Source of the DNA: Deltaproteobacteria bacterium
Lineage (GTDB): Bacteria > Desulfobacterota > Dissulfuribacteria > Dissulfuribacterales > UBA3076
Length of the DNA: 64,000 nt
Assembly: GCA_018399745.1 (NCBI GenBank)
Contig: JAGYNZ010000010.1
Span: 5,416-69,415 of the forward strand
Direction: 5' to 3'
Made by a program: the position numbers and the translations under genes. The notes beneath the pieces were generated by a model, which had not been told where the DNA came from, did no database searches, and saw nothing but the letters and a program-made list of their open reading frames with translations. Below, piece by piece: positions 35,748-62,274 of this stretch. Numbering within the stretch: position 1 is the first letter of the stretch; every line of letters begins with the position of its first letter.

Positions 35748-37025
35748 TTAATTTGATTTTAATATGAGGCTGGTGGATATGTCGTGGACAAAGGGTATTC
35801 TTGCCACAAGACCTCCTGCGTCCTTTACTGTTTCGGCCCCTACTATGTTTTTTTCTTTCCAATCCGCTCCCTTGACCAAGACATCTGGAACAATGTTTTG
35901 GATAATGTTTAATGGAGTGGTATCATGAAAAATCACCACATAATCTACAGCGGCAAGTCCAGCCAGCACTTGCGCCCTCATTGCTTCGCTATTGACAGGT
36001 CGTCCCTGCCCCTTGATTTTTCTGACTGATTTGTCGCTGTTTAATCCTACCACCAGATAGTCACCTAAATGCCTGGCTGATTCCAGATATGAAACATGAC
36101 CGGCATGCAGGAGATCAAAACATCCATTGGTAAAAACCATCTTTTGGCCGGCCTTACGTCTTCGCTTTACCGCGATATTCAGAGAAGGCAGGTCCAGTAT
36201 CTTTATATTGGCCTTTGGCCACCAGGATCTTGGTGCATGTGCAGTAAAGAAGTCTTGGCGTGTGGAGTGTACTTCATTCATATCAAGTTCAGCCAGGATA
36301 ATGGTCTCTCCGTTACAGGCCCTGGCAAGTATGTCCCCACGTGGTCCTATAATTTCAGAGCCTCCGCCAAATTCTGTGCTTCCAATCATTCCCCAGGCGT
36401 TTGCACCTGCCAGAAAACATTGATTTTCAATAGCTCTTGATTCCATCAGAATCTGCAGATGGTGTACCCGGTTAACTGGCCACAAGGCAGACAAGAGTAT
36501 TAAATCCACTCCCTGGCACACAATGTGACGTACAAGTTCTGGGAAACGCAGGTCAAAACAGGTTATCAGGCCAAGTCCTAATTCGGTTTCTCTAATGGGT
36601 ATCCAAAAGGCGACAGGGTCAGTTCCAGGGCTAAAAATATGATCCTCTTTCATAGGGCCGAATAGATGGATTTTTCTATATTTATGGAATGTACTATCAG
36701 GTCCAATCAAATAGGTAGTATTAAAGAGCCTCTCACCTGAATTCTCTATGTCTAATTCAGGCAGTGTGCCGACTATATGAATTCTGTTCGTCTCTGCCAA
36801 AATTTTAAGCTTGTACAGGAGTTCGGGAATTTCATGGGCCAGATATTTGTCCGTCTCACTGAGAGGCCCTGTAGCCCATAGTTCGGGAAGTAGAAATAAT
36901 TCCGCTCCGGCCCTTGCAGCTTTAAAGGTTGCAGATTCAATTTTTTTCCAGTTGGCCTGGACATCTTTTTTTATAGGAGTAAACTGAAAAATTCCTATTT
37001 TAAAAGTTGACATTGATTGTTTCAT
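35748..37025 (-). CDS. Fusion: carbon-nitrogen hydrolase (nitrilase family) plus HldC/RfaE-II heptose-1-phosphate adenylyltransferase
   Basis: N-terminal LPEL / YRKIHLF / TCFDLRFPE catalytic triad; C-terminal VFTNGCFDLLHAGHV.YL..A...GD.LVVGLNSD.SV and VKG.DW; one uninterrupted ORF. Confidence 0.88.
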   Translation of the reverse strand: MKQSMSTFKIGIFQFTPIKKDVQANWKKIESATFKAARAGAELFLLPELWATGPLSETDKYLAHEIPELLYKLKILAETNRIHIVGTLPELDIENSGERLFNTTYLIGPDSTFHKYRKIHLFGPMKEDHIFSPGTDPVAFWIPIRETELGLGLITCFDLRFPELVRHIVCQGVDLILLSALWPVNRVHHLQILMESRAIENQCFLAGANAWGMIGSTEFGGGSEIIGPRGDILARACNGETIILAELDMNEVHSTRQDFFTAHAPRSWWPKANIKILDLPSLNIAVKRRRKAGQKMVFTNGCFDLLHAGHVSYLESARHLGDYLVVGLNSDKSVRKIKGQGRPVNSEAMRAQVLAGLAAVDYVVIFHDTTPLNIIQNIVPDVLVKGADWKEKNIVGAETVKDAGGLVARIPFVHDISTSLILKSN

Positions 37026-37115
37026 AATTAAAAAATTAATCTGCTAACTATTGCAAGGAAATACAGGCGGGTGATTTTAAGCAATACCACATATTCTGTC
37101 TTTCAGTTCAATCAT

Positions 37116-45058: not shown

Positions 45059-46426
45059 ATGGGAGTTTTGAGGATTGTAACTGTTTTGTTTTTTGCAGGC
45101 TGTGTTTGGTCCTCTTATGGACTTTGCGGCACAGAGCCTGCGGAGGTTCCCAAGGCCAAGACTATCGCCGAGCTGGCTGCTCGCTATGATGCGAGTTCTT
45201 GTGGGGAATGTCACGAAGAGCAATATGAACAGTGGGAGAATTCACTTCACGCCGTTTCTATCCTGGGCACTCCACGTACAGCCCCGACCGTACTGACCAG
45301 CGTAGATATGGGCCTGAAGTTGTTCCCTTATTCAGGCGTGAAAACGGACGAAGATGTCGAAGTCCGTCATCTCATGATGTGCGCCAAGTGTCATCTGCCT
45401 CAACTGGATGAGGCAACGGATGATGTGGCCAGGGAAATCGTCAAGACCATAAGAGACTGGATGAGTGCAAGCAGAAAGGCATATGACGATGAGGCATATG
45501 AAGATGTAGCGGATGAACTTCAGGAAAAAATAGCAAGCCTGAATATCAGCTGTTTGGTCTGTCATAACAAGAAGGCCATTATCCACAAATGGATGGATGG
45601 CTATCCCCAGCCGGATACAATTTATGCATTGCAAGAGGGTGAACATGATCACCCTGACTTTAACAAACTTGGTAAGGCCCCGGCCCTGAATGAGTCCATA
45701 TTCTGCGGTCAGTGTCATGGTTTGGGACCCAATTTTGAACTGGATGAGCCTTCCCAGTGCGCCACGGCGTATGGTAGCTATCTCTTTGCTTATATACCCG
45801 AGGGAGGGTCTCACACTTGCCAGGAATGTCATATGCACAAATCCGGTCTGGGCCACGATATGCAGGCCTACCGGAATGAGACAATGATCAAGATGGCCTT
45901 TGATGTCGAAGTCGATGCCATGTCACTTTTCTGGCGCAAAGACAGTGTAGAAGGCGTGATTCCTCTTGGAATAATTAATGTAGAGATCTATAATAAGTCA
46001 GGCCATGCCATTCCCGACGGCTGACCCACCCCCAACAGGCTGGTCCTGGATGTGACCGCAAAGACAGTAGAAGGGGAAGAGGAAAAACAAATCTATAATG
46101 ATCAGGTCATCTACATGCCTTACCCCGGACGTTTTGGCAGGGGGTCAGAAATGGGAAGAGGACCTTATGAGAAGTGCGGTTTGTTGAGAGATACCTGCAT
46201 ACCGCCTCTAAAGAAGGTCAAGGAAGTCTTTGAGATACCTTTCCCATATGCCGATGTGGAGAAAGACGGTAAGAAGACCAGGGAACTTAGCGCAGATGAG
46301 CTTTTAGTGGAGGTCAAGCTGTGGTACGTACCCTTTGGTGAATTTACAGATTGCTGGAATAACGTAGTATTCTTTGAAGAAGAAAAGAAGATAGAACTCA
46401 AGGACGAGTGGGTCTGGAGAGACTAG
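45059..46426 (+). CDS. extKL: Selenocysteine-containing pentaheme c-type cytochrome (ExtKL/MHSEP-like), Sec322, 455 aa
   Basis: Five CxxCH motifs (CGECH, CAKCH, CLVCH, CGQCH, CQECH); TGA 46022-46024 in GHAIPDGUPTPNR, in frame with ORF 46052..46426; N-terminal signal with a possible lipobox (FAGC). Confidence 0.85.
46039..46059 (+). promoter_or_regulatory. Putative SECIS hairpin (cytochrome)
   Basis: GC(T)GGTC-CTGGATGT-GACCGC, with GGA starting at +24. Confidence 0.6.
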
Positions 46427-46442
46427 ACCAAGAAATCTGTTC

Positions 46443-46474
46443 CTGCAGACCGGCTTTTTTGTGCCGGTCTGCAG
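46443..46474. terminator. Hairpin between convergent genes (likely terminator)
   Basis: CTGCAGACCGGC-N8-GCCGGTCTGCAG perfect 12-bp inverted repeat. Confidence 0.75.
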
Positions 46475-46480
46475 ATCTAT

Positions 46481-48094
46481 TTAGCTTTCAACACCGATAC
46501 CCTCAGTGTGTTTGGGAAGATGCAGGGTAAAGGTAGAACCATTGTCCTGTTCAGAATCCACCTTAATATCACCATTCCATTCATGAACGAGCCTATGTAC
46601 TATTGCCAGGCCTAATCCTGTTCCGTCCGGACGAGTAGAGAAGAAAGGATTGAATACTTTTGGAAGGTCCTCCGGCTTTATACCGGTTCCGTTGTCTGAT
46701 ATTTTAAGAATAAAGTGATCTTCTTCTCCATTCTTTCCATTGATTGATATTCTTCCGTCTGTATACGGCAGTGCCTGATACGCATTCAGCAGGAGGTTCA
46801 GAACGACCTGTCTGAACTGAGAGGGATCCACCTCGAATTTTAGATTCGCCGGTATATTCCTTTCAATATCTGCGTTGGGTAGTTTTTTTCTTTGTTTTAT
46901 CATGGAAATAACCGATTCAATTTCTTCCAGCAGAGATACGTTTTGGATCTTTCTCCCCTCTGGTTTCGCATAGAGAAGAAAAGACTTGGTAATATCATTC
47001 AAATGGTCGCTTTCTCTACTAATAATCTTTAGCAGCCTTCTTTCTTCAGGATGCAGCATTGCCGATTCTTCCAGAAACTGAGCTGCCCCAGACAGCGATG
47101 CCAGGGGGTTTCTTATTTCATGAGCGAGTCCCGCGGCCATTTCACCCAGGGCGGCAAGACGATCCATACGTTGAAATTGCTCTTCCCTTGCCTTTATCTC
47201 CGTAATATCTTGAAAGATTATTCCATATCCAAGGCGTTGTTCTTTATAGCCTTTTAACAAAAAAATAGATGTCCCGAGGAATCCGGGTGAGCCTTGGGGA
47301 GTTGTATGGCTTACTTCCTGTCTTTTACTCTCTCTGCCGTTCCTGAAATTCTTCAGTAGCTCTGCCCCGGTTTGCCAGAATTCTTGTAGGGGTTGCCCGT
47401 ATCCATTAATGATTTTCTGCCCGAGGATATTAATAGCCGCATGATTAAAGAATGTTATATTTTCTTTCTCATCTACTGTGATCAGACCTGACTGGATGCT
47501 TTCCGCAAGATGGTGATGGATCTCCTCCATACGGCACAGATCTACTCTGGTATCTGACAGCTTTTTTTCCGTATAATGGAGGCGTCTCGCAAGGACAATT
47601 CCTAAAGATGCAATGATGTTAAATGAGGCTATGGTGATAAAGAAAATATATAAAGTCTCATTAAATCCGTTTTTGGGAATATCATAGAGCCAGAGAAGAG
47701 CGGCATAGCTGATGATACAAAGGAAGGTTGATAGAGCACCCTCCTTTTGACTTCCAAGAATACATGCCGCGAGAATGGCAACCGGATACAGGAATACCAG
47801 CGGACTTTCAAACCCGCCGGTCCAGAATACGGCGAGATTAACCAGTATGACGTCAAAGAGTGTCTGGGTATACAAGAGCCATTTATTCAGGCCTTTCTTT
47901 TCGTACCATATAGTATAAACAGCAGTAAGAAAAAATGCCCCTCCCAGGATCAGGGACAATTGAGTCATTTTGACAAAGGAATCGGCAAAATGTTTGCACT
48001 GAAGGTAGGTGATGCATAGCAGCAGAAGCAGTATAGTCAGCCGGCCTGCAATGAGACGGTAAAACAGGCGACTATTTAAAGTCTTAAAGGGCAT
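46481..48094 (-). CDS. pilS: PilS-like membrane sensor histidine kinase (PAS, HisKA, HATPase)
   Basis: Multiple TM segments with TGG.ESP..FLY; AHEIRNPL, NLLLNA, DNG.GI and GTGLGL motifs. Confidence 0.8.
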   Translation of the reverse strand: MPFKTLNSRLFYRLIAGRLTILLLLLCITYLQCKHFADSFVKMTQLSLILGGAFFLTAVYTIWYEKKGLNKWLLYTQTLFDVILVNLAVFWTGGFESPLVFLYPVAILAACILGSQKEGALSTFLCIISYAALLWLYDIPKNGFNETLYIFFITIASFNIIASLGIVLARRLHYTEKKLSDTRVDLCRMEEIHHHLAESIQSGLITVDEKENITFFNHAAINILGQKIINGYGQPLQEFWQTGAELLKNFRNGRESKRQEVSHTTPQGSPGFLGTSIFLLKGYKEQRLGYGIIFQDITEIKAREEQFQRMDRLAALGEMAAGLAHEIRNPLASLSGAAQFLEESAMLHPEERRLLKIISRESDHLNDITKSFLLYAKPEGRKIQNVSLLEEIESVISMIKQRKKLPNADIERNIPANLKFEVDPSQFRQVVLNLLLNAYQALPYTDGRISINGKNGEEDHFILKISDNGTGIKPEDLPKVFNPFFSTRPDGTGLGLAIVHRLVHEWNGDIKVDSEQDNGSTFTLHLPKHTEGIGVES

Positions 48095-49514
48095 ACTTGG
48101 ATAGACGATATCTAAAGGATCTGAAGTTAAGCCCTAAAATATTGGCGGCTTCTGTCTTCGCCCCATTTGTCATCTCGAGCGCCTTTTTCAGAAGAGTTTT
48201 TTCTATATAATTAAGGAACTGTTCAAGGTCTAAACCTTCGGGTCCCAGATACGGTTCATAAGAAAAAGGGCTGTATTCAACGGATTTTTGCTGCTTAAAT
48301 TCAGCCAGAGACAGGCTTTCAGGAAGCAGAAGATTTGATGTAGCAAGGGCGACACTTCTTTCTATAATATTTTCCAGTTCTCTCACGTTTCCAGGAAACG
48401 AGTATTTCTGTAATGCATCCATTGCAAAGCTGGATATTCCCTGTACGGCCTTATTTTGTTCTTTAGAATACTTGTCCAGAAAGTACTGGACCAAGAGGGG
48501 GATGTCTTCAGTACGTTCTCTTAATGGCGGCATACGAATGGGGATTACATTCAGTCTATAATACAGGTCTTCTCTGAATCGCTCGTTTATTACTTCCTTT
48601 TCCAGGTCACGATTAGTGGCTGCTAATATCCGTACATCCACCTTTCTTTCATTGGTATCGCCAAGAGATGTAAAAGACTTCTGCTGCACCACTCTCAACA
48701 GTTTGACCTGTAAGGTCATAGGCAGTTCTCCGATTTCATCCAGAAAAATAGTACCTTGATTGGCTATGGCAAACAGGCCCTGTTTTTCACGGTTAGCTCC
48801 GGTAAATGCCCCTTTTTTGTGGCCGAACAGCTCGCTCTCAAGGAGGTTCTCCGGAATACCTCCGCAGTTAATAACGACAAATGGCCGGTCTTTGCGGACT
48901 CCGAGGTTATGAATGGCTCGTGCGGCAAGCTCCTTCCCTGTGCCGCTTTCACCGGATATGAGTACACTGGAGGGACTGGAAGCTATCCTGGGTATTAATT
49001 GAAATATTTTCAGCATGACCGGGCTTTTGGTCAACATATTGTCAAGCTTATAAATCCTGTCAGCAACATCTCTGATCAAAGAAGGGGACTTTTGCCTTGT
49101 TTCAAGGGCTTTTCCAACGACCTCTCTAATTTCTTCCAGCCGAAAGGGCTTGGTAAGATAATCCCAGGCCCCTTCTTTCATCGCGGCCATTGCATTATCC
49201 AGGGAGGCAAAGGCCGTAATCAGTATTACCGGGACATCCGCATGCTTAGTCTTAATTTCCTTTAATAGAGTCATTCCGTCGATGCCTGGCATCTTAACGT
49301 CACTTATAACCAGAGATATATCTTCTTTCTCCATGAGACGAAGGGCCTTTTCTCCATTGGATGCTGAAAATGTCTCGCAACCTTCTTTGGCAAGCAGTAT
49401 CTCCAGAAATTCCCTGAGGCTTTGGTCGTCATCAACTATCAGAATTTTGGGTCTGGTATCACCCTGGCTATCCGTCGTTCCTTTAGAAAAATTTTCAGGA
49501 TGCACAGAACTCAT
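48084..49514 (-). CDS. pilR: PilR-like sigma-54-dependent response regulator
   Basis: Receiver domain, GESGTGKE, GAFTGA, RFREDLYYRLNV and HTH ending FRSFRYRL.K typical of PilR. Confidence 0.82.
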   Translation of the reverse strand: MSSVHPENFSKGTTDSQGDTRPKILIVDDDQSLREFLEILLAKEGCETFSASNGEKALRLMEKEDISLVISDVKMPGIDGMTLLKEIKTKHADVPVILITAFASLDNAMAAMKEGAWDYLTKPFRLEEIREVVGKALETRQKSPSLIRDVADRIYKLDNMLTKSPVMLKIFQLIPRIASSPSSVLISGESGTGKELAARAIHNLGVRKDRPFVVINCGGIPENLLESELFGHKKGAFTGANREKQGLFAIANQGTIFLDEIGELPMTLQVKLLRVVQQKSFTSLGDTNERKVDVRILAATNRDLEKEVINERFREDLYYRLNVIPIRMPPLRERTEDIPLLVQYFLDKYSKEQNKAVQGISSFAMDALQKYSFPGNVRELENIIERSVALATSNLLLPESLSLAEFKQQKSVEYSPFSYEPYLGPEGLDLEQFLNYIEKTLLKKALEMTNGAKTEAANILGLNFRSFRYRLSKYAL

Positions 49515-49697
49515 GTAGGTACCTCCGACATAAAAATTCACACACCTTGACCTCAGCCTCTTTGCTATATGGGGATGTACAATATCTTTCGCAGTACTTA
49601 TCGACAGAATGGAGAGAGACGTTGAATGTATAACGTCTTGAAACGGGTGTATTCGGCCATGCCGTTCCGAAAAGCGACTCCCGAAAGCGGCAGAACC

Positions 49698-52520: not shown

Positions 52521-53861
52521 CTAAAATCCTACAGCTAATTGGAAAGTGGCGATGCTCTGGTCTTTCCTGTCGCTATCTTGTCCTACATAGGTATAGTCCA
52601 TGCTGACTTTGGCATTGTGTCCCTTGACGAAGTAATTTAATCCTGCAGTTATGAATTCCGTATCGTCTTTGTCATCCACGTCAACCGCCTCATATTTGAC
52701 ATAAGGCTGGAGACGGCCGGGACCTATGTTGCCCGGCAGCAGATATCCTGACTGGATGTACCAGTTCTGGGCATCATCTCCTGCCGCCAACTCGGAAAAA
52801 TTATGTGTCTGAGTGCAATTCTGAATGTCAATATAGGCAGCTTCTGCAGTTATGGCACCCCCTCCCAGAGGATGGTCGAAAAAGACGTCAGCGGTCCATA
52901 CGAGGTTGTTCTGGTCCTCTTGGCCGTTCAAGGTCAGATCATTTTGAGTGTCGCAGCCCAGACCAAGACTCAGGACTTTTTTCTTGCCGAGATAAGTCCC
53001 CATATTAAACCAGTTTTTCTCGGGTTCAAGGAGATTGAGGGCCACACGACCAGCAAAGCGAAGGTTGTCATCAGGATTGTTGTCATTTTCGACCCCTTCA
53101 GAGACCATGAATCGGTATTGCAGGAGCCCGTCCAGGGGGTTGCCCCAAATTGTCACACTGTCATCTCGACCTACCTTGCTGGCATAAAAGATACTTCCGC
53201 GCACACCGCCTTGTAGAAAGGGTAGATCGGTGGTCAACATGCACTTTGTCGATGTTGTGCCATAGTTGCGTGTAAGGGGGACATACATCCTGCCGACCTG
53301 AACCTTTAAGGCCTCATGCAACTTCAGGGTAATCCAGAGGTCACGGATCGCGATACCGCTCCCAAGACCTACTGAAGGGCTGTCCAGTCCTTCCTGTCCG
53401 ATCCGGTCGGCAGCTATGTGCGTAAAGAAGCTGAAATAAGGAGTTATGTCACCCTTAAGATAGAGGTAAAATCTCCGTGCCATAAAATCGTTAAGGTCTC
53501 CGCCATCCTTCTTTCCATGTTCCACATACTGATACCAGACCTGTGTCCATGCCCCGATTTCTCCCTTGAGTACTTTGTCATCGATCCCCTTCGCTACTTC
53601 ATATTTCTCATGCTGGCGTTGTTCTTCCAGTACCGCCACCTCTTTCTGTATTTTTTTCGCCTCTTCTTCCGTAATTACACCCTTGCTAATCAGGATATCG
53701 ATGAGCGGATCTTGCCTGTCGTATTCTTTTAGCTGTGAAGCGCCGGGTTTTTCTTTACCAGTCTGGTCATCAATTCCGAACTTGAATCCTCCCCATGCAG
53801 AACTCCCTGTCCAGAAAATACAGGCCATGAAAACAAACAGCATTTTTACAAATCGATTCAT
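52521..53861 (-). CDS. Outer-membrane porin (OprO/OprP-like anion porin)
   Basis: Signal peptide, LIDIL.SKGVIT.EEA N-terminal motif, F.ARR..L...G.., amphipathic beta strands and C-terminal Phe. Confidence 0.8.
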   Translation of the reverse strand: MNRFVKMLFVFMACIFWTGSSAWGGFKFGIDDQTGKEKPGASQLKEYDRQDPLIDILISKGVITEEEAKKIQKEVAVLEEQRQHEKYEVAKGIDDKVLKGEIGAWTQVWYQYVEHGKKDGGDLNDFMARRFYLYLKGDITPYFSFFTHIAADRIGQEGLDSPSVGLGSGIAIRDLWITLKLHEALKVQVGRMYVPLTRNYGTTSTKCMLTTDLPFLQGGVRGSIFYASKVGRDDSVTIWGNPLDGLLQYRFMVSEGVENDNNPDDNLRFAGRVALNLLEPEKNWFNMGTYLGKKKVLSLGLGCDTQNDLTLNGQEDQNNLVWTADVFFDHPLGGGAITAEAAYIDIQNCTQTHNFSELAAGDDAQNWYIQSGYLLPGNIGPGRLQPYVKYEAVDVDDKDDTEFITAGLNYFVKGHNAKVSMDYTYVGQDSDRKDQSIATFQLAVGF

Positions 53862-54002
53862 CTCTTTACTCCTTTCCCTTTGATGTAGTTTTGTAGATAT
53901 TTTTGTAAATTTATTTACAGGAAAAACTCTCCCTGGTTCACTGAATGTGTTCCTTCAGCAGGACAAAAAGAATTATTAGAATTCTTAATCATTTGGACGA
54001 AC

Positions 54003-54076
54003 TTTTATATCATGATAATCAATAGGTCAAATAGAAATAATTGATATTAAATAATAATTCTATTGAGTTTTTCTAT
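54003..54076 (-). promoter_or_regulatory. Shared promoter/operator copy A (porin), two LysR-type boxes
   Basis: 59/74 identical, ungapped, to 62201-62274; boxes ATAGAAATAATTGAT (54031-54045) and ATTGAGTTTTTCTAT (54062-54076). Confidence 0.75.
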
Positions 54077-54206
54077 TCTGGAAATTAACCCGCCATGGTC
54101 CCTGATTATGTTGTTGTCCAGTTTACCGGAGAGGCGACAAAGAAGCGCACAGGGTGTAGTCGAGCGGTGATGTCTGCTTGGCAGGGAGTGATCTGGACGG
54201 TTATGG

Positions 54207-54773
54207 TTATCCCATACCGGAAGGGCAAACTTTTTTTATCCTATTCGATACGCCGTAGGCCTTTAAGAGATAACGGGCTGCTGAGGGGACCAGATTCTCC
54301 CACGGCTTATCCTGAGAGATAAGCTTCCTGATATATGTTGAGGACAAGCCTTTTTGTTCAATGGGCCTTCGCCATAAAACCTCGGTTTTGAGGCCCATGG
54401 ATTGAAACATTTCGAGTTTCTTCTCACCCCATCTATCATAAATGGTCAAAAAAAACAGGGCATCAAAGGGGACATAGTATTTGTAGAGTTCAGGTACATT
54501 GATGGGAAAAGGGACTATGGAGAACTCATTTATTACAAGCCCCTGTTGCAGCAATACGGCTTTAACTACCCGGTATCTTTCATAATATGTAAAAGGGTTT
54601 GCATTCAGTGAATCCCTGAGCGGGTCCGCAGCGTCTTTACGGGTCAGGGTTGGGTCCGGGTTGGTTATTCCGACAACAAGGTGCCTGCATTTTGACTTTG
54701 CGGCCATCAGGTATTTAACGTGGTCATTATGCAGGATCTGAAAGCGTCCGTGAATAATGCCTGTTTCAGCCAT
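54207..54773 (-). CDS. Cytidylyltransferase-like nucleotidyltransferase (NMN/NaMN adenylyltransferase-like)
   Basis: GIIHGRFQILHNDH (HxGH-like), VVGITN, NPFTY.ER and SST.IR motifs. Confidence 0.8.
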   Translation of the reverse strand: MAETGIIHGRFQILHNDHVKYLMAAKSKCRHLVVGITNPDPTLTRKDAADPLRDSLNANPFTYYERYRVVKAVLLQQGLVINEFSIVPFPINVPELYKYYVPFDALFFLTIYDRWGEKKLEMFQSMGLKTEVLWRRPIEQKGLSSTYIRKLISQDKPWENLVPSAARYLLKAYGVSNRIKKVCPSGMG

Positions 54774-54848
54774 AATCACCCTGAGATTTTTTTAAAAAAG
54801 AGTAACATGATAACTCCGGGAGTAATCAGCATTCCGTACTACGTGACG

Positions 54849-56159
54849 TTATTCCAGACTGAAAGGTGTTCTGTGTCCTGGCCAATAGGCCTGATCTTCC
54901 GGGGTGTCCATAAGGCCCCTTAGTTTCGCTCTATCCAGAAAATCAAGTATCATAGGCATGAAGTCAGACCCTGTCACAAAACCCAGTGCTCCACCGGCAC
55001 AATTAATTTCGTCAAAGCGTTCAACATCATCCCTGCGAATTCCTTGCCCGACTATGGTAATCGGCACAGGTTCCCCTGAGTGAATCAGAGGACCGGCAGA
55101 GGGGGTGGAGTGATCGGATGTGATCACAAGTAATAATTCAGGGTCCTCAAGCAGCGTGTTGAGGACACTTCCCAACCCCCTGTCCAGAGACTCGATTACA
55201 TCCCTTTTAAGGCGGGGATTTTTCGTGTGGGCGGCAGAGTCCGGAGTCTTGGTGTGTACATGGATAAAATCAAAATCACGAACGTTTGACAGGGCGAGCC
55301 TGATCCGGTCGGCGAGGTCTTTATCCGGATCTAAGCTGTCATGCTGCTTCAAAAACTCTATGCCCAGAAAGGTGGACAATCCCCAAAAAATCAGGCCTGA
55401 GGATATTGATAATCCCCTGAGCCCCCAGCGTTGGTAAAAATGATCAACCTTCTTAAGTCTGCCAGGGCGATGAGTCGCAAGGGCATTTATGGGAAATTTT
55501 TTTTCCATCTGCCTTTTTAAATTGACTTGGTGGCATTTAAGCCTGCTATAGCAGTCCCGAAGAAATTCTTTAAGAATTCTGGAGGTGGTCTGTGCCTTAA
55601 GGTCTTCACGATTCGAATCGAGAGGCTGTATTTCTATAAAAGGCATACCTTCCTGCAGGGGATCTGAGTCGGTTACATGCGGGGAAGCACCGCCTTTCAT
55701 CAGAACAACACCATCGAGACCATGTGTCTGAACAAAATATACCTTAAGACCGTCGGCCTTATGTATAGTGATCCCCTTTAGAATTTGATCTATTTCTTCT
55801 GTAGTGGCCTTCGGTCTGTCTTTTCTGAGTATAAGTGTGTTGTTTTTCTCGGCCACACTTACAAAGTGTGCCAAAAAAGCCACGTCATCAGGGCGGACGG
55901 GAATTCCAGCTCCCAGCGCCTCCAGTATTCCTCTTCCTGGAAATTCCTCCTGTCTGTAGCCGAACAGGGCGAAGTGTGCATTTTCACTGGGGAGGGCCAG
56001 GCCCTGCCTTTTACCATGAAACAGACCATTGCCGCCCAGCCTTGCGAGTCTGTCGAGGTTAGGGGTTTCGGCTGCCTGCAGCGGGGTTTTGCCGCCCAGA
56101 TTTACATATGCCCGGTCACCGAGACCGTCCAGCAGTATCAATATACATTTAGAAGGCAT
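54849..56159 (-). CDS. Cofactor-independent phosphoglycerate mutase-like enzyme (ApgM / alkaline phosphatase superfamily)
   Basis: LLDGLGD, TPLQAA.TPNLD, PSENAH..LFGY, GRG.LEALG, HTK.PD.AAH, TSDHST and HSGEP motifs; start trimmed to ATG 56159. Confidence 0.85.
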   Translation of the reverse strand: MPSKCILILLDGLGDRAYVNLGGKTPLQAAETPNLDRLARLGGNGLFHGKRQGLALPSENAHFALFGYRQEEFPGRGILEALGAGIPVRPDDVAFLAHFVSVAEKNNTLILRKDRPKATTEEIDQILKGITIHKADGLKVYFVQTHGLDGVVLMKGGASPHVTDSDPLQEGMPFIEIQPLDSNREDLKAQTTSRILKEFLRDCYSRLKCHQVNLKRQMEKKFPINALATHRPGRLKKVDHFYQRWGLRGLSISSGLIFWGLSTFLGIEFLKQHDSLDPDKDLADRIRLALSNVRDFDFIHVHTKTPDSAAHTKNPRLKRDVIESLDRGLGSVLNTLLEDPELLLVITSDHSTPSAGPLIHSGEPVPITIVGQGIRRDDVERFDEINCAGGALGFVTGSDFMPMILDFLDRAKLRGLMDTPEDQAYWPGHRTPFSLE

Positions 56160-56275
56160 TAAACGATTATACTGAAAAAGGTCTGAAATATAGTTCTCAA
56201 ATTTAATATATGTTCTCCAGTAAAAGCAGATAGTGGAAATTTTGCAATATAAAATCATAATTGAATATGATGCTA

Positions 56276-56290
56276 ATAGAAAAAATCTAT
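56276..56290. promoter_or_regulatory. LysR-type palindromic box in the divergent iPGM-like/PHP promoter
   Basis: ATAG-AAAAAAT-CTAT (ATAG-N7-CTAT). Confidence 0.55.
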
Positions 56291-56355
56291 GGACATCTTG
56301 CTTTTCATATATAAAATCAATTTGACTTTTTGCCAAATTATCAGAAACATATAAC

Positions 56356-56979
56356 ATGCTTTTTGACTTTCATGTACATACCCGAATTTCACCATGCAGT
56401 GACCTTGATCTGAAGGATATATTGAAACACGCCAGGTCCAGAGGTCTGGACGGGGTTTGCATTACTGATCACGATACAATGGACATAAGAAATTTTTGCC
56501 AGGAAGGAATACAACGAGACGGTCTATGCATAATTTTCGGAATGGAATATTCGACTGCAGAAGGGGATTTCCTCATCTTTGGTCCATTTGAAGGAGTGCC
56601 CCGGGGACTTTCAGCAAAAGAGATTCTCACAGAGGCAGATAAATCGGGTGGAGTGGCTATTGCAGCGCATCCTTGCAGGAAGGCCCGTCCTACCATGGAG
56701 TATGTTATCAAAGAAGGATATTGCCGTATAGTGGAAGGGATAAACGGCCGGAATCAAAGACATGAAAATCAGATGGCCATGTCTTTGTATCAGAATTATT
56801 CTGTCTCATTTTTAGGTGGCAGTGATTCGCACACCCTGGAAGAACTGGGCAGCATTTCTACCCTCATTTATGGCGCGATAAGGACAAGGTCGGATTTAAT
56901 TAATGCCGTTAAACAAGGAAATTTTGCCCTCGATACCCGGAATCATATGAATTCCTTGCAGCCGGAATCGTCTTTGTAG
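56356..56979 (+). CDS. PHP-domain metallo-phosphoesterase
   Basis: DFHVHT, CITDHD, GMEY, AAHP, EGINGR and GGSDSH motifs. Confidence 0.88.
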   Translation: MLFDFHVHTRISPCSDLDLKDILKHARSRGLDGVCITDHDTMDIRNFCQEGIQRDGLCIIFGMEYSTAEGDFLIFGPFEGVPRGLSAKEILTEADKSGGVAIAAHPCRKARPTMEYVIKEGYCRIVEGINGRNQRHENQMAMSLYQNYSVSFLGGSDSHTLEELGSISTLIYGAIRTRSDLINAVKQGNFALDTRNHMNSLQPESSL

Positions 56980-57150
56980 TCTCAATGCTGGCAAAGTAAT
57001 CGTTTCGCTGTACTCGAAATTATAAATATCTTCCAAAGTCCCTTTACTTATATTGATTTCTTTTAATAAATTATTCTTTCTGCATCGGTAGAATTTTAAT
57101 AATAAAATGCTAATCTTTTAGGTTTAGGTACAAGGATAAAGGAAAATGCA

Positions 57151-58200
57151 ATGAGCGCGCAGAAAAGACTTCGTCTCACCGAGACGGTTTCCGGTGCAGG
57201 GTGAGCCTCAAAAATTCCTCCAGGGGACCTGGACAGGGCATTATGCGGACTGGAATACCCAGTTGACCCCAATCTTATCGTGGGATTACAGCGGGCTGAC
57301 GACGCGGCCGTATATAAAATCACCGACGATATTGCCATAATACAGACGGTGGACTTTTTCACTCCAATCGTCGATGATCCATACTGGTTTGGCCAGATTG
57401 CCGCTGCCAATGCATTGAGTGATGTCTATGCCATGGGGGGTGTTCCCAAAACGGCAATGAATATAGTGTGCTTTCCTTTGAAAAAAATGGATCTTTCCGT
57501 CCTCCGGCGGATCATTCAGGGTGGATTGGATAAGATGAAGGAGGCGGATGTCGTTTTGGTGGGTGGGCACAGTGTGGAGGATGCTGAATTGAAATACGGT
57601 CTGTCTGTCACTGGTTTTGTCCATCCAAAACGCATCCTTATTAAAAAAGCCATGGAACCAGGGGATCATTTGATCCTGACCAAGGCCTTGGGTACTGGGA
57701 TTATCAATACGGCCATTAAGGCTGGAATTGCCTCCAATGAGACCATTGAAAGCGTCACTCGTCTCATGGCTACCCTTAATCGGGATGCGGCTGATGTGAT
57801 GCGACATTATCCGGTCCATGCATGTACCGATGTTACCGGTTTTGGTCTTTTGGGTCACATGTGCGAGATGATAGTAGATACCGATATAGGAATTAATTTA
57901 CAGGCCAGCCTGGTCCCATGCCTTCCTGAGGCCATGGAATATGCCCGAATGGGTCTGGTGCCGGCCGGAACTTATAAGAACCGGGAATTCCGTGAGGCAT
58001 TTGTGGATTTTGCACCTTCTGTGGACGGGTTTATGCAGGACATCCTTTTCGATGCCCAAACCTCCGGCGGGTTACTGATTTCAGTGGCAGGAGAGGCAGC
58101 TAATCAATTGCTGAGTGATTTACAAAGAAGAGGGATGACCAGCGCAACAGTAATAGGTAAGGTAGTGTCTGAGCCAAAAGAGAAGATTTTAGTGGTATAA
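57151..58200 (+). CDS. selD: Selenide, water dikinase (selenophosphate synthetase), Sec18, 349 aa
   Basis: ATG 57151, MSAQKRLRLTETVSGAGUASK with TGA at 57202-57204, in frame with the DDAAVY, TVDFFTP, NALSDVYAMGG, TDVTGFGL.GH and DAQTSGGLL motifs. Confidence 0.97.
57219..57233 (+). promoter_or_regulatory. Bacterial SECIS hairpin (selD)
   Basis: TCCAGG-GGA-CCTGGA perfect stem, loop at +21 to +23. Confidence 0.85.
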
Positions 58201-58267
58201 TTGCGCCCTGCGGACTTGATTTAACTTAGGCATAAGTTTTTCGGTCTCTCTCCGCAGTTTTCTGCTT

Positions 58268-58927
58268 TCAGTATATTAGTATTAGACCAAGATGTGATAC
58301 GCAGGGTAACTCAGATGGTAGAGTGAGCTTTCCTGCAGGATAGATATCCCAGCCTGCCCGAATCGCCATTTTGAAAACATCCATTCCTACTGCGTGCATT
58401 GAGGGCCTCCCTCTCAAGGGATGTCGACAACTCTGGCCTGCTATTATAGCACTGCAGTCATCTTCTGGGCACAGGACTGATTTGCATGAAGATCCTCCAA
58501 AACCGAGTGCCAGATAGTAACCATCATAATATGCCTGAGCTTCAATCCTTGATACGATCTCAAAACTCTTTATCTTTATATCTCGGTCGCACCCAACCAG
58601 TGTTTCAGCCGATCCATCCAGTTTAAAAAAGATGGCATAATCGAAATTATTCACCATTATTCTGATTTGATCTGGACGAGGAGTATAAGGTGGGCAATTT
58701 ACGTTAGTTCCACAGACCGGACACCTCGGAAACATACATTTTGCAACCACTCTCTCGTCAATCACTATGTCACTAGAATTGATGATTTTGGCATCCGTTG
58801 CCCCAATTTTGACGGCACGTTGCCTATATTTTTCAAGATCATTTTCAAGGACCTCTTCAGGGACGTATTCTACAATTTTGTGAAGCACGGCGTTTCTTTT
58901 CTCAAGTTTTCCGAAGACCAGGATCAT
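58268..58927 (-). CDS. DUF2284 family Cys-rich metal-binding protein
   Basis: KC..P.C..CG.N..CPP, GGSSC...LC....C......CR.P..GRPSM.AVG.DV motifs. Confidence 0.8.
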   Translation of the reverse strand: MILVFGKLEKRNAVLHKIVEYVPEEVLENDLEKYRQRAVKIGATDAKIINSSDIVIDERVVAKCMFPRCPVCGTNVNCPPYTPRPDQIRIMVNNFDYAIFFKLDGSAETLVGCDRDIKIKSFEIVSRIEAQAYYDGYYLALGFGGSSCKSVLCPEDDCSAIIAGQSCRHPLRGRPSMHAVGMDVFKMAIRAGWDIYPAGKLTLPSELPCVSHLGLILIY

Positions 58928-59108
58928 TATTCTTATCAGAACAGATCCATCTCACTAATATCAAAAAATTTAGGACTTCGTCTTCCTGACATGATCCCAG
59001 CCCCTTTTTCCCCTTCACTGAGGCCGGACTGGGCTGGTTTCCTTATCAATTAAAATTAATGAATCGAGTAAGTTGTGTACTTGATATTGTATTGTCCGGA
59101 ATCTGGAT

Positions 59109-59360
59109 TTAATTTCGATCCATTGTACCGTGATTGATCTCTGCCTTCAGGTCCGAAATCAGCTCTTCCATGTCTATTTTATATTTTTCAGTCACTTTTT
59201 CCAGGGTCTCGAACAGTGCGTTGCAACAGATACATGTCCCAGCCTGTTTGTCGTATTTTCTGAATACAGTCTCTGTTTTCCTGTACAGGTGAATGATTTC
59301 AAGCACAGTCATTTCCGGATGAATGTCATATATGTGTAATTTCTTTAATTCTGTATTCAT
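59109..59360 (-). CDS. Small DUF1858-like protein with CICC motif
   Basis: I.PEMTVLEII..Y..TE.VF..Y....G.CICC.ALFETLE; translationally coupled to the upstream gene. Confidence 0.65.
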   Translation of the reverse strand: MNTELKKLHIYDIHPEMTVLEIIHLYRKTETVFRKYDKQAGTCICCNALFETLEKVTEKYKIDMEELISDLKAEINHGTMDRN

Positions 59361-60220
59361 TTCTTACCCAAGAGTAGCTCCGCCAGGGCCCGGGGTATAT
59401 GGTCAATGATCTCAATTACCTGGGTAGCCGGTGTGGGCTTTGAGAAATGACCGGCCAGGCGGTTGGCCCGGGCCGAAAAGACAGCGGCTTTCTCTATTTC
59501 CCATTCTGCGCTGATAAGAGCGGCTGCTATACCCGTCACGATATCTCCAGTACCACCTATGGCCTCCAATGCCTCCTCTGCCGGTTTTTTGATTGTGGCT
59601 CGAATCCCTCCCTGATCAGCTACGTAGTCGTCTTTCCCTTTAACCAGGAGAAAGCGAGAGGCATTCTTATGACTGTATGCGCGAGCGATCATATCCGGCA
59701 CACGGTTTTCTTCGTGCAGAATAAAACCGCGGGTATAAAACGGGTGAGGCGCATCTTCATCCGCCAGAAAGGCCAATTCCCCGACATCGGGTGTGAAGAG
59801 GTCGTATTCCGAGGCCATGCCGCTCATCTTGGCTGCATACATGAAGCCGGCATCTGCAATGAGGACCGGCCTGCGCGTCATTTCTTTCACCACAAGCAAG
59901 ACCCGATTATGCCAATCCACATCCGGTTGAACATAGTGAAAGGCAATGGTGCTAAAATCATTTTCTTTGATATGCCTGGTAAGATATTCATAGAGCAGTC
60001 TGCTGCCATCTCCCAGACCGATATCCCCGATCAAATACCCAAATGGTTCAGGTCGGCCCAGGGTCTCTGCGGTCTTAATTGCTGCAGCCAGAAGGGCAGG
60101 GGTGCCCCGGTTTACCGGGACCTCATTGCCCTGAATGTATAAACGGTCTCCCTGCAATGTGGCCTTTCCCGCAACCAGGGGGAAGCCTTGATCAGGCACG
60201 GTTCCGACTACTGCGAGCAT
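59357..60220 (-). CDS. Ribokinase-fold enzyme (NnrD/ThiM-like carbohydrate kinase family)
   Basis: VLIADAG, LFTPDVGEL, LLVKG and GGTGD anion-hole motifs. Confidence 0.75.
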   Translation of the reverse strand: MLAVVGTVPDQGFPLVAGKATLQGDRLYIQGNEVPVNRGTPALLAAAIKTAETLGRPEPFGYLIGDIGLGDGSRLLYEYLTRHIKENDFSTIAFHYVQPDVDWHNRVLLVVKEMTRRPVLIADAGFMYAAKMSGMASEYDLFTPDVGELAFLADEDAPHPFYTRGFILHEENRVPDMIARAYSHKNASRFLLVKGKDDYVADQGGIRATIKKPAEEALEAIGGTGDIVTGIAAALISAEWEIEKAAVFSARANRLAGHFSKPTPATQVIEIIDHIPRALAELLLGKK

Positions 60221-60759
60221 CGGTGCTTCATCTCCTCAAATGCCAGCTGAAGTGCATAGCCACACAGGGTGTGGCCGATTTCGCGCGGCGCTGGTGCCTG
60301 ATTTAAAGTTTTGCCTACCAGCTCTTTTGCCAGGTATGGGACATCCGGGCAGCCGCCGCCCGAGACATTCACAATGGTCAGGGTTGCCTTTTCCACGGTG
60401 AGCTTCATGTTTGCCGCCCGCACCATAAGGTGTGCCCCATAGTCTTTGACCTGAAAGATGTCCACAGGTTTTAGCAATGGACTGGTTGACGGAACTGCTT
60501 CTAAGGGCGATATTTCCGCCTCTTGAAGGGTCCTCAGTATATTCAACTCTTCTATCAGGGAAAACTCAATGACCAGATCACAGCCGTGCTGAATCTCAGG
60601 GGGAGGCCCCATGACACGGATTTCCCATTTCTGACTCTTAAGAATGCGCTCAGCCCTTATCACCTCACTGGTATTTTCAAATATCAGAATACCACGGTCC
60701 AAATTTTGTTTTTTGGTCTTTAACGCCTTCTGCTTAAAAAAGGAGTTCAGAAGAGCCAC
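60208..60759 (-). CDS. DUF3343 domain protein with C-terminal extension
   Basis: F.NTSEVIRAE.IL...PP.I..GC.L DUF3343 pattern; C-terminal GGGCPD and HTLCG motifs. Confidence 0.75.
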   Translation of the reverse strand: MALLNSFFKQKALKTKKQNLDRGILIFENTSEVIRAERILKSQKWEIRVMGPPPEIQHGCDLVIEFSLIEELNILRTLQEAEISPLEAVPSTSPLLKPVDIFQVKDYGAHLMVRAANMKLTVEKATLTIVNVSGGGCPDVPYLAKELVGKTLNQAPAPREIGHTLCGYALQLAFEEMKHRCSQ

Positions 60760-60761
60760 GG

Positions 60762-60980
60762 CTATCCCTTTGCCATTGTAATTCTATACTCATCGTTTTC
60801 TGACTGAATATCCGTGGCAAGCCATCCCTGGCTTGCGGCGGCCCGGATAACATTTTCTCTGGCGGCTTCATTATCTACAAGGACTACGATCTCTCCATTG
60901 TCTGTCGCACTGATCCCGTCCAGGGTCATCATTACAGGCTGAGGACATGAAAATCCCCGCGCATCAATAGTCTTGGCCAT
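60762..60980 (-). CDS. TusA/SirA/YedF-family sulfur/selenium carrier
   Basis: IDARGFSCPQPV...VLVDNEAA.ENV motif. Confidence 0.9.
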   Translation of the reverse strand: MAKTIDARGFSCPQPVMMTLDGISATDNGEIVVLVDNEAARENVIRAAASQGWLATDIQSENDEYRITMAKG

Positions 60981-60992
60981 TTGTGTCTCTCC

Positions 60993-62084
60993 TTATGCAG
61001 CCTTTCTTCTCATGGTAAATCCGATAAATAAGCAGAACAAAAATCCTATAACCACCGCGGCAACACCATAAGGTCCGATTCCTTTTGGTGAGCTGGCCAG
61101 GCCGAAGTTGTGGGCTAAACCGGCACCCGTAATCATTCCCAGGCAGAATACTGCAGCATCCCCGTCCCCTTCGCCTGCCATAAAGAGCTGCCGTCCCGGA
61201 CATCCACCAGCCAGCGCGAAGGCCATGCCGGCTACCAACATGCCGGCAAAATTCCAGAAGGCCATTGTATGCGCCACCGGCTGATTTTCAAAACCAGGGT
61301 GAAACTGACCTGCAACAAAGTTGGTGATCCAAGCAGCAATCAATAGGGCCATGACCCCTAAAAAGAGATGGACCTGTCTGAACAGGATAAGGTCCCGAAA
61401 GGCCCCCATGGTGCAGAAACGGCTCCTTTGGGCCAGGAAACCTACGCCAAGTCCAATGGCCAGAGACACAATAAGCGGGGCATGCATAGCCCCTGGCCCC
61501 TTGATGCTGTAAAAGAGTATTCCGCTTCTATCCTGCCCGGGAACATATGGAAACAGCAGCAACAGTACAAGGAACCCCAGCATGGTTATAGGAAGGATCC
61601 ATCCTGCGGAGGTATACGTCTTATGAGAGCGTCCCAGATCATATCCGGACCTCATGAAAAAGGTGGCTATCCAGATACCGGTTATCAGACCGAGCAGCCC
61701 GAAAATGGCATTTCCGTCTCCACCGGCCAGACGCAAAATGGCCCGCCAGGGACATCCCAGGAAGACCAGTGCCCCTATCATGGCAAATACGCCCAGCATA
61801 TATCTCACTATGGGGGATGAGCCCCCCCGGGAACGGAATTCTTTGAACAAAAGAGATGAAATCAACGAACCCAGGACAAATCCGATAATTTCAGGTCTTA
61901 TATATTGCACTACCGCTGCCCGGTGCAATCCGAGTGCGCCTGCGATGTCCCTCTCAAAACAGGCTACGCAGATGCCCATGTTCCCAGGGTTACCCCATTT
62001 CTGAAGAAGAGCGGCGAAAATCCCGATTAAGATACCCACAGCTATTATTCCCCAGGGAGTTACAAAGTAATTTTTAGAAAACAT
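60993..62084 (-). CDS. yedE: YedE-family putative selenium transporter
   Basis: GNPGNMGICVACFERDIAGALGLH, YIRPEI.G, FLGCP.R, RSRFCT.G and GGCPGRQ motifs typical of the Se-associated YedE subfamily. Confidence 0.92.
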   Translation of the reverse strand: MFSKNYFVTPWGIIAVGILIGIFAALLQKWGNPGNMGICVACFERDIAGALGLHRAAVVQYIRPEIIGFVLGSLISSLLFKEFRSRGGSSPIVRYMLGVFAMIGALVFLGCPWRAILRLAGGDGNAIFGLLGLITGIWIATFFMRSGYDLGRSHKTYTSAGWILPITMLGFLVLLLLFPYVPGQDRSGILFYSIKGPGAMHAPLIVSLAIGLGVGFLAQRSRFCTMGAFRDLILFRQVHLFLGVMALLIAAWITNFVAGQFHPGFENQPVAHTMAFWNFAGMLVAGMAFALAGGCPGRQLFMAGEGDGDAAVFCLGMITGAGLAHNFGLASSPKGIGPYGVAAVVIGFLFCLFIGFTMRRKAA

Positions 62085-62200
62085 TATCCTGACTACCTCT
62101 CTTTTTCTGAAGATTGTTTACCCTAAAAGATTTTTCCTTGTGCACTGATTGAGGGGGTACGCATTCGAAAGGTCATGACTCCAAATAAAATTGAGAAGTG

Positions 62201-62274
62201 TTTTACATCAGGATAATCAATAAAACAAATAGAAATTATTAATGCTAAATAAAAAGATTATTGAATTTATCTAT
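62201..62274 (-). promoter_or_regulatory. Shared promoter/operator copy B (yedE operon), two LysR-type boxes
   Basis: 59/74 identical to 54003-54076; boxes ATAGAAATTATTAAT (62229-62243) and ATTGAATTTATCTAT (62260-62274). Confidence 0.75.

Follow-up and report, generated by a model that had tools for sequence, protein, structure and literature searches.

A kinase-fold protein and a two-domain DUF3343 protein form an obligate pair in a yedE-tusA-selD cluster of a Dissulfuribacterales bacterium

The selenophosphate synthetase gene selD of a deltaproteobacterium of the order Dissulfuribacterales (GenBank assembly GCA_018399745.1, contig JAGYNZ010000010.1) lies in an eleven-gene island at positions 52521-62274 of the stretch analysed here, which spans 64,000 nucleotides (contig positions 5,416 to 69,415) and is referred to as the window. 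The island is probably best read as two things side by side, namely a selenium import and delivery cluster that includes a new protein pair, and a separate module of three genes (the trio) encoding a PHP phosphoesterase, an apgM-like phosphotransferase and a nucleotidyltransferase (NTase). The cluster itself is of a known general kind, with an ExtI-like porin, a YedE inner-membrane transporter, a TusA-type cysteine carrier and SelD in its selenocysteine (Sec) form. What is new is the pair, consisting of a Carb_kinase-like protein with a kinase fold (CKl) and an extended DUF3343 protein (DUF3343x), which constitutes an undescribed enzymatic component of the selenium uptake cluster. How selenium is picked up at trace levels, separated from sulfur and handed over to SelD is an unsolved problem in which YedE, YedF and DUF3343 have figured as candidate players only.

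Results

CKl and DUF3343x form an obligate pair

DUF3343x combines an N-terminal DUF3343 domain (Se_S_carrier, PF11823) with an unnamed C-terminal domain that has no Pfam or NCBIfam family match, and it is the sole DUF3343 copy in the genome. Three cysteines are invariant in its alignment: C60, C137 (in the motif SGGGCPD) and C166. The structural model (predicted local distance difference test, pLDDT, 88.6) consists of the DUF3343 domain and a sheet-helix domain; Foldseek gave no match at E <= 0.001 and a profile search of the PDB gave nothing. CKl was modelled with a pLDDT of 93.1 as a ribokinase-like protein whose nearest structure is the NnrD protein TM0922, followed by ThiD and PfkB (query TM-score, TMq, ~0.6; 14-15% identity), and a Foldseek probability of 1.00 to NnrD, ThiD, PfkB and PdxK places it in the ribokinase-like superfamily. 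Its invariant motifs, which correspond to those of the NnrD encoded elsewhere in this genome but are not identical to them, are GDxGxGxGS, ADAGxMYxAK, TPDxGE, VKGxxD and GGTGD. CKl thus resembles the NnrD/YjeF C-terminal domain (PF01256; TM0922, YxkO) in the ribokinase-like fold, the GGxGD anion hole, the TPxxGE motif and the VKG and ADA motifs in register, but it differs in its low sequence identity, in an Asp replacing the His of TPHxGE, in a GDxGxGxGS loop of its own and in having an obligate protein partner. Its match to the NnrD equivalog model TIGR00196 reaches 32.4 bits against a cut-off of 129.85, which leaves it outside that family.

Relatives of CKl were collected by scanning one genome per species, which yielded 344; locus counts below refer to the best 80 of the 344 (61-92% identity), nearly all of them from metagenome-assembled genomes labelled as Desulfobacterota-type, with Desulfonema magnum among them. 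Occurrence across the phylum was assessed in an evenly sampled set of 301 genomes. The C-terminal domain of DUF3343x is found in 80 of these 301, of which 79 also have CKl; a contig edge and a fragment account for the two exceptions. The two genes also overlap, with the CKl start codon lying inside the end of the DUF3343x gene in 85 of 90 loci and the overlap being exactly 13 nt in 54, as it is in the window. Furthermore, when proteins longer than 503 aa were considered, 28 of the 30 listed relatives proved to be single chains carrying both PF11823 and PF01256. In one such fusion (P0136), residues 67-231 correspond to DUF3343x (55% identity) and residues 273-556 to CKl (49%). No fusion was found among the 90 loci, despite long open frames suggestive of one (87 pairs out of frame, 3 in frame with an intervening stop). 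A 636-aa relative on a single 2.1-kb contig (P0150) contains Sulf_transp, DUF3343 and Carb_kinase regions and is either a triple fusion or a gene-calling artefact, a lead only.

Structure prediction of the DUF3343x-CKl complex gave a median score of 0.86, compared with 0.41 for the best of three controls. In a calibration that applies roughly here, the same mark was attained for 58 out of 80 complexes of solved structure, as against 2 out of 110 mismatched pairs. Runs shared at least 91% of contacts, and partner pLDDT was at least 82. Of the 45 invariant CKl residues, 16 fall in the predicted interface against 6.9 expected, and of the 24 invariant DUF3343x residues, 14 do so against 5.1 expected; in this interface, C60 of the carrier and the SGGG-PD cysteine loop sit on the GGTGD and glycine-rich loops of CKl. 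Near one-to-one co-occurrence, overlapping genes, fusions and the predicted complex together identify CKl and DUF3343x as an obligate pair.

The pair is a constant part of a yedE-tusA cassette

The island proteins were compared with the 80 CKl loci by tblastn. DUF3343x is present at all 80, tusA at 76 and yedE at 73, the yedE misses falling mostly at contig ends. The grouping of the kinase-fold gene with yedE that the first-pass annotation of this DNA had proposed thus holds well beyond the window, CKl being a constant member of the yedE cassette. A DUF1858-like gene lies 3' of CKl in 37 loci and is a frequent last gene of the cassette. Clustering of all open reading frames (ORFs) from the loci further revealed a long YedF (TIGR03527, 215 bits) after CKl in 20 loci and a LysR-type gene beside the cassette in 15. 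An HgdC/BcrAD-type activase was seen in 12 CKl loci and an HGD-D dehydratase-like protein in 9 (e.g. L024, L035). The recurrence of LysR, the HgdC-like activase and HGD-D parallels the neighbours in the STRING table within the available passages of Lin et al. 2015 (PMC5322559). In the window, YedE covers positions 2-337 of the 337 of TIGR04112 and passes the equivalog cut-off, while the tusA product corresponds to the TusA part of TIGR03527 only (positions 1-66; 50.4 bits against 110) and is therefore not a long YedF.

In the phylum sample, CKl occurs in 80 genomes and a TIGR04112-type yedE in 126; 68 genomes have the two together, 12 have CKl without yedE and 58 have yedE without CKl. We viewed nine of the twelve CKl-only genomes, leaving out G107, G179 and G245, in which CKl lies at contig ends. 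Eight of the nine (G039, G144, G175, G205, G158, G248, G025 and G235) carry a split, divergent YedE-like pair and tusA directly beside DUF3343x-CKl, in other gene orders (loci L123-L128, L130 and L131). The split YedE is encoded by two genes of ~150 aa each with 26-31% identity to the window YedE, and the genes run DUF3343x-CKl-yedE(N)-yedE(C)-tusA or as the reversed block. As these genomes keep all the parts together, the linkage of transporter, TusA, DUF3343x and CKl withstands both divergence and rearrangement. Among same-order genomes in the sample, none of nine has yedE or CKl, unlike the window genome. The patchy distribution of the cassette fits gain or loss by transfer.

Sulfur rather than selenium could be the cargo. 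On such a reading the cassette would handle thiosulfate, persulfide or polysulfide as a relative of YeeE/YeeD (TsuA/TsuB) and of YTD clusters (yedE-like, tusA, dsrE-like), and the proximity of selD would be incidental. YedE belongs to the Pfam family Sulf_transp and matches TsuA models weakly, TusA-type proteins form a family of sulfur carriers, and TIGR04112 at E 1e-20 does not pick up the divergent split-YedE forms. Moreover, the passages of Lin et al. 2015 (PMC5322559) available to us delineate no selenium-specific branch of DUF3343, and the portions of the YTD literature at hand describe YTD clusters as common in the same phylum. The architecture is also alike, in that a YedE-family transporter and a TusA-type carrier are followed by cytoplasmic cysteine proteins that take the chalcogen. 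However, the window YedE scores 487 bits on the selenium-type model TIGR04112 and 26-39 bits on the TsuA models; selD lies in the flanks of 36 of the 80 loci and adjoins four of the eight divergent split-YedE cassettes; the long YedF follows CKl in the 20 loci mentioned above; and an ExtI-like porin is adjacent in 14 of 80. The window also lacks DsrE/F/H, the partners being DUF3343x and an enzyme with an ATP site, and the cluster is linked to selD. No DsrE-family match was found among the island proteins, DsrE being part of YTD as defined in the passages available, and the hypothetical proteins of YTD clusters are reported there as DsrEFH-type and not as CKl or DUF3343x. We consider a sulfur cassette with selD nearby by chance improbable.

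SelD is an ordinary Sec-type enzyme

The first-pass annotation had read selD as itself encoding a selenoprotein, and this is borne out by an in-frame TGA at 57202-57204 inside the GAG-U loop. Most of the orthologues listed likewise show a single TGA. A hairpin 3' of the TGA was no better than in shuffled sequences (z -0.43), so the Sec call rests on the alignment and on the TGA of the orthologues. The gene is found in 276 of the 301 phylum genomes, in all 32 genomes with the apgM-like gene and in 77 of the 80 CKl genomes, the three CKl genomes without it being 80-84% complete. With selA present in the genome and no match to selU, YqeC or SenB at cut-off, selenocysteine is the only known use of selenium found in this organism.

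The PHP-apgM-like-NTase trio is a separate module

The apgM-like protein displays the Ser and metal-ligand motifs in its translation. It passes the subfamily model TIGR00306 and stays below the cut-off of the equivalog PRK04024. The NTase reaches 38 bits against 181.2 (TIGR01527) and 50 bits against 127 (PRK01153) on models for nicotinamide mononucleotide adenylyltransferase (NMNAT) and so falls outside both; its signature, given as HxGH in the first-pass annotation, reads H-N-D-H in the translation. A metagenome scan with the apgM-like protein returned 25 loci, 24 of them non-self, and in the phylum sample 32 of 301 genomes encode it, of which we viewed 27, leaving out G009, G022, G110, G191 and G300 (36-44% identity or partial). 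PHP and NTase each occur beside the gene in 16 of the 25 metagenome loci. Across the 55 non-window loci, an NTase was found in 29 and an alternative protein, c15, in 16, never both; PHP was found in 24 and another protein, c16, in 12, again never both. c15 is an unannotated 278-aa protein with no Pfam or NCBIfam match, for which language-model look-alikes are PP-loop proteins of the QueC/ThiI type (a lead only), and c16 is a TIM-barrel protein of the AP-endonuclease-2 type. The mutual exclusion of NTase and c15 and of PHP and c16 indicates an apgM-like core with swappable nucleotide-activating and phosphoesterase partners. Most likely, the trio nucleotide-activates, transfers and dephosphorylates a phospho-compound. 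Among longer apgM-like relatives only a different, ATP-cone subfamily was found (28-34% identity), in a search whose range stopped short of fusions of 240-763 aa.

A similar pairing of an apgM-family protein with a nucleotidyltransferase is seen with PhpG (NF038358), but the island protein scores 184 bits against the 545 of that model and is thus not PhpG. In phosphinothricin biosynthesis, the Php pathway proceeds by nucleotide activation and apgM-like transfer.

The relationship of the trio to selenium genes is loose. None of selD, yedE, tusA and CKl lies within the flanks of the 24 non-self metagenome loci, which speaks against a selenium link, and in 21 of the 27 genomes viewed the trio flanks contain no selenium genes. 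In the remaining six (G000, G088, G098, G253, G141 and G154), trio genes are at most 10 kb away from selD or yedE, some of them embedded in the operon on the same strand. Random placement would be expected to give far fewer than one such case; the linkage is therefore genuine, albeit facultative. Embedding in a selenium operon was observed in L122 and L136, and five further cases were found via CKl (L024, L035, L044, L062 and L065). In L122 the order on one strand is c16-yedE-tusA-apgM-like-NTase-selD-DUF3343x-CKl; in G154 the selenium cluster has the NTase and c16 on its flanks, and the apgM-like gene stands alone elsewhere. In L094, L096 and L110, the trio adjoins genes for a permease and a binding protein resembling a Pst-type phosphate ABC (ATP-binding cassette) system, as judged from the sequence, which speaks against a role in selenium metabolism.

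The nearest relative represented by a long contig (L016, 90% identity) retains the same synteny from PEBP to pyrC together with the selenium genes, and lacks the apgM-like gene, the NTase and DUF2284; two PHP fragments are left (L016:12193-12511; window counterpart 56356-57204). One of these fragments reads straight into the start of selD. The loss of the trio in L016 suggests a recent deletion, unless it is an artefact of the assembly. The trio is a separate, self-contained module inserted between selD and the porin, with an occasional selenium link. That its substrate or product contains selenium is unlikely on these data, though with an appreciable chance of being right.

The first-pass annotation had gone further and envisaged a single pathway in which selenium enters through the porin and YedE and is carried on Cys proteins, and in which all four enzymes (CKl and the trio) work together on selenophosphate to make or recover a selenium metabolite of the phospho or nucleotidyl type. 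All four are indeed extra paralogues, at least four arrangements are seen in which trio genes lie inside or next to yedE/selD clusters, including those of L122 and G154, and SenB and YqeC scored below cut-off, so that no known small-molecule route is present. However, CKl and the trio occur independently, and CKl travels with DUF3343x and does without the other three enzymes. Trio genes are rare at the 80 CKl loci (apgM-like 5, PHP 4, NTase 0), and the non-self trio loci are free of CKl, yedE and selD, as described above. A TIGR04112-type yedE is present in only 17 of the 32 apgM-like genomes, compared with 126 of 301 overall, the sister locus L016 retains its selenium genes with only a PHP remnant, and the cluster contains no enzyme that forms a C-Se bond. 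A joint pathway is therefore quite unlikely, and of the neighbourhood relationships with selD and yedE that had been proposed, the one between CKl and yedE stands while the trio mostly occurs without selenium genes.

Layout of the island and genomic setting

All eleven genes of the window island were checked by ORF listing and by Pfam and NCBIfam searches, and the gene map of the first-pass annotation was confirmed throughout (Table 1). The tight coupling described there is evident in gaps of 12 nt between yedE and tusA and 2 nt between tusA and DUF3343x, and CKl and the DUF1858-like gene overlap by 4 nt. A 181-nt gap separates the DUF1858-like gene from DUF2284. The apgM-like ORF extends to 56357; homologue alignments begin at the Met at 56159, which was taken as the start. 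The island is flanked by pyrB/pyrC on one end and by genes for PEBP and an MFS (major facilitator superfamily) protein on the other.

Table 1 Coordinates and best supporting matches of the island genes in the window
Gene or product	Position	Strand	Evidence
Porin (ExtI-like / OprO-P family, outer membrane)	52521..53861	-	NF040900 148.6 bits vs 150; PF07396 (Porin_O_P) 42 bits
NTase, NMNAT-like nucleotidyltransferase	54207..54779	-	PF01467 34 bits; GRFQ..HNDH and SSTYIR motifs
apgM-like metal-dependent phosphotransferase	54849..56159	-	TIGR00306 331 bits vs 320; PRK04024 310 vs 489
PHP phosphoesterase, divergent from apgM-like	56356..56979	+	PF02811, PF13263
selD, selenophosphate synthetase, Sec at residue 18	57151..58200	+	TIGR00476 390.6 bits vs 125
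DUF2284 metal-binding protein	58268..58927	-	PF10050 105 bits
DUF1858-like, 83 aa, CxCC motif	59109..59360	-	PF08984 26 bits (<32.2); TIGR03980 32 bits (<44.95)
CKl (Carb_kinase-like), 287 aa, NnrD-like ribokinase fold	59357..60220	-	PF01256 37.7 bits
DUF3343x, 183 aa	60208..60759	-	PF11823 81 bits on residues 23-87
tusA, TusA/YedF-type sulfur/selenium carrier, 72 aa, CPQP	60762..60980	-	PF01206 60.1 bits
yedE, putative selenium transporter, first cassette gene	60993..62084	-	TIGR04112 487 bits vs 200

The porin, which had been described as anion-type, belongs to the Porin_O_P family and lies just under the cut-off of the ExtI model; it recurs beside the cassette as noted above, and no ext cytochrome genes are adjacent to it in the island. 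DUF2284 is present at the locus after the operon, as annotated, but does not prove to be a conserved member, since it is found at none of the 80 CKl loci and is missing in L016. Contigs from three public runs (X2, X3 and X6) join position 58219 to 59100 and thereby lack DUF2284, which is nevertheless present on other contigs from these runs. A presence/absence polymorphism is one possible explanation, the signal being weak with only 30 letters on the joint side.

The genome (2.65 Mb in 88 contigs, 97.5% complete) encodes housekeeping counterparts of the island enzymes elsewhere: a fused 517-aa nnr (contig C26; PF01256 206.8 bits), gpmI, gpmA, a second apgM-like gene, a nadD-rsfS fusion and coaD. 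The check for separate housekeeping copies that the first-pass annotation had proposed thus finds nnr, gpmI/gpmA and nadD outside the island. The island enzymes are therefore extra paralogues and, as that check required, stand apart from the housekeeping copies. The nadD gene (G000:C9:14366-15400) is apparently fused to an RsfS-like C-terminal part in one open frame of 345 aa. That CKl is merely a second NAD(P)HX dehydratase or a small-molecule kinase of the ThiM/ThiD kind, with DUF3343x an unrelated neighbour, has in its favour a Pfam Carb_kinase match above the gathering score, relatives labelled 'NAD(P)H-hydrate dehydratase' or 'sugar kinase' in their source records and a profile match to ThiM at 31 bits, but it is very improbable given scores of 32 against 129.85 on TIGR00196 and 24 against 180 on ThiM, the full housekeeping nnr, the nearly one-to-one co-occurrence with DUF3343x, the fusions, the predicted interface over the active-site loops and a recorded family drawn mostly from one phylum.

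The window gave no hit in Rfam or tRNA scans, and the promoter (24 against 17.1 expected from shuffles) and terminator (14 against 10.0) scans stayed close to chance. Just past pyrC, at 45059-49541 of the window, lie a multihaem cytochrome c gene and genes for a PilS-like histidine kinase with a sigma-54 response regulator. A 431-aa ORF at 35751-37043 on the minus strand joins a nitrilase/amidohydrolase-like N-terminal part to an adenylyltransferase of the HldE domain II type (PF01467, 68.7 bits).

Discussion

The cassette has clear affinities with known selenium systems. In the available passages of Lin et al. 2015 (PMC5322559), which treat YedE/YedF (FdhT/FdhU), DUF3343 and LysR_Se, a TIGR04112-type YedE, a TusA-type carrier and DUF3343 likewise lie by selD. 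However, DUF3343 is described in these passages as a small protein of 80-100 aa, whereas here it has 183 aa and two domains, and they mention no ribokinase-fold partner, to which DUF3343x is locked in the present cassette. Unlike YedE/YedF systems, the window also lacks a long, DsrE-containing YedF. Mining of selD neighbours has previously led to the sen cluster for selenoneine (SenA/SenB/SenC; Kayrouz et al., 10.1101/2022.04.13.486033), and in the parts of that report available to us yedF and duf3343 rank among the commonest selD-overlapping genes. The window differs from the sen cluster in that its selD is the ordinary Sec-type enzyme with selA present, and the best match in the genome to TIGR04348 (SenB) reaches 45.3 bits against 300 and lies on another contig. 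The searched literature, which covered articles apart from their supplements, contains no description of the DUF3343x-CKl pair, nor of an NnrD-like or kinase-fold gene tied to YedE or DUF3343; the novelty of the pair may be affected by the supplementary figures of Lin 2015 and by Kayrouz Supplementary Table 1, which gives the ten genes that most commonly overlap selD.

A further likeness concerns the C-terminal domain of DUF3343x, which gives a weak fold match to the IscU/SufU scaffolds (1q48, Z 6.2, rmsd, the root-mean-square deviation, 2.9 with 79 residues aligned; 4eb5_C, Z 5.6). As in IscU/SufU, its cysteines lie at a strand end and a helix start. These Z values are in the common range of the tool, and DUF3343x has no sequence match to the scaffolds, which makes the resemblance a lead only.

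To rationalise the pair on the molecular level, we tentatively hypothesise, by analogy, that CKl acts with ATP or ADP on carrier-bound selenium and that a Cys-S-Se(-) species is handed to SelD, a scheme to which we give rather less than an even chance. NnrD phosphorylates a hydroxyl so that it departs, and thiol-selenite (Painter) chemistry would underlie the reduction of Cys-bound selenite. In the proposed sequence, CKl would use ATP or ADP and act on selenium held by the cysteines of DUF3343x, phosphorylating the Se-OH of a Cys-bound selenite adduct to create a leaving group in analogy to NnrD. The three DUF3343x cysteines, with TusA, would then reduce the adduct by thiols to a Cys-S-Se(-) species, which would be passed to the Sec/Cys loop of SelD.

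Several points weigh against this scheme and against the selenium reading on which it builds. The chemistry ascribed to CKl is inferred from its fold and the predicted interface only, CKl has no conserved cysteine, and the complex prediction used custom alignments, for which the calibration of its score is rough. Alternatively, the substrate of CKl could be a small molecule, DUF3343x serving as a regulator. The 58 yedE genomes without CKl mark the pair as accessory and not as a requirement. The 80 CKl loci are close kin with nearly all one phylum label and are not independent observations, and the presence of selD in most genomes of the phylum renders phylogenetic profiles against it powerless. 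Finally, a sulfur cargo has to be reckoned with, since members of the YedE/YeeE and TusA families also transport sulfur and sulfur compounds sustain the phylum.

The proposal of CKl acting on carrier-bound selenium can be taken further still: DUF3343x-CKl would be an ATP-driven 'selenium activase' that provides protein-bound perselenide to SelD as a physiological selenium donor system, while the apgM-like module in some genomes would make or recycle a nucleotide-linked selenium-phosphorus compound. This extended version is unlikely to be correct in full.

The trio is at present annotated as a phosphoglycerate mutase with unrelated neighbours; because it is now and then embedded in selenium operons, a role connected with selenium can be tested. 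The pair of a three-cysteine carrier and a kinase-like enzyme, sometimes fused, offers a concrete, purifiable target for an energy-dependent step of selenium delivery. Sulfate reducers are not known to contain glutathione, and if the proposed chemistry is true, the CKl step would matter at trace selenium and in cells without glutathione. If the pair indeed acts as a 'selenium activase', it would be the long-sought physiological selenium donor system in these bacteria.

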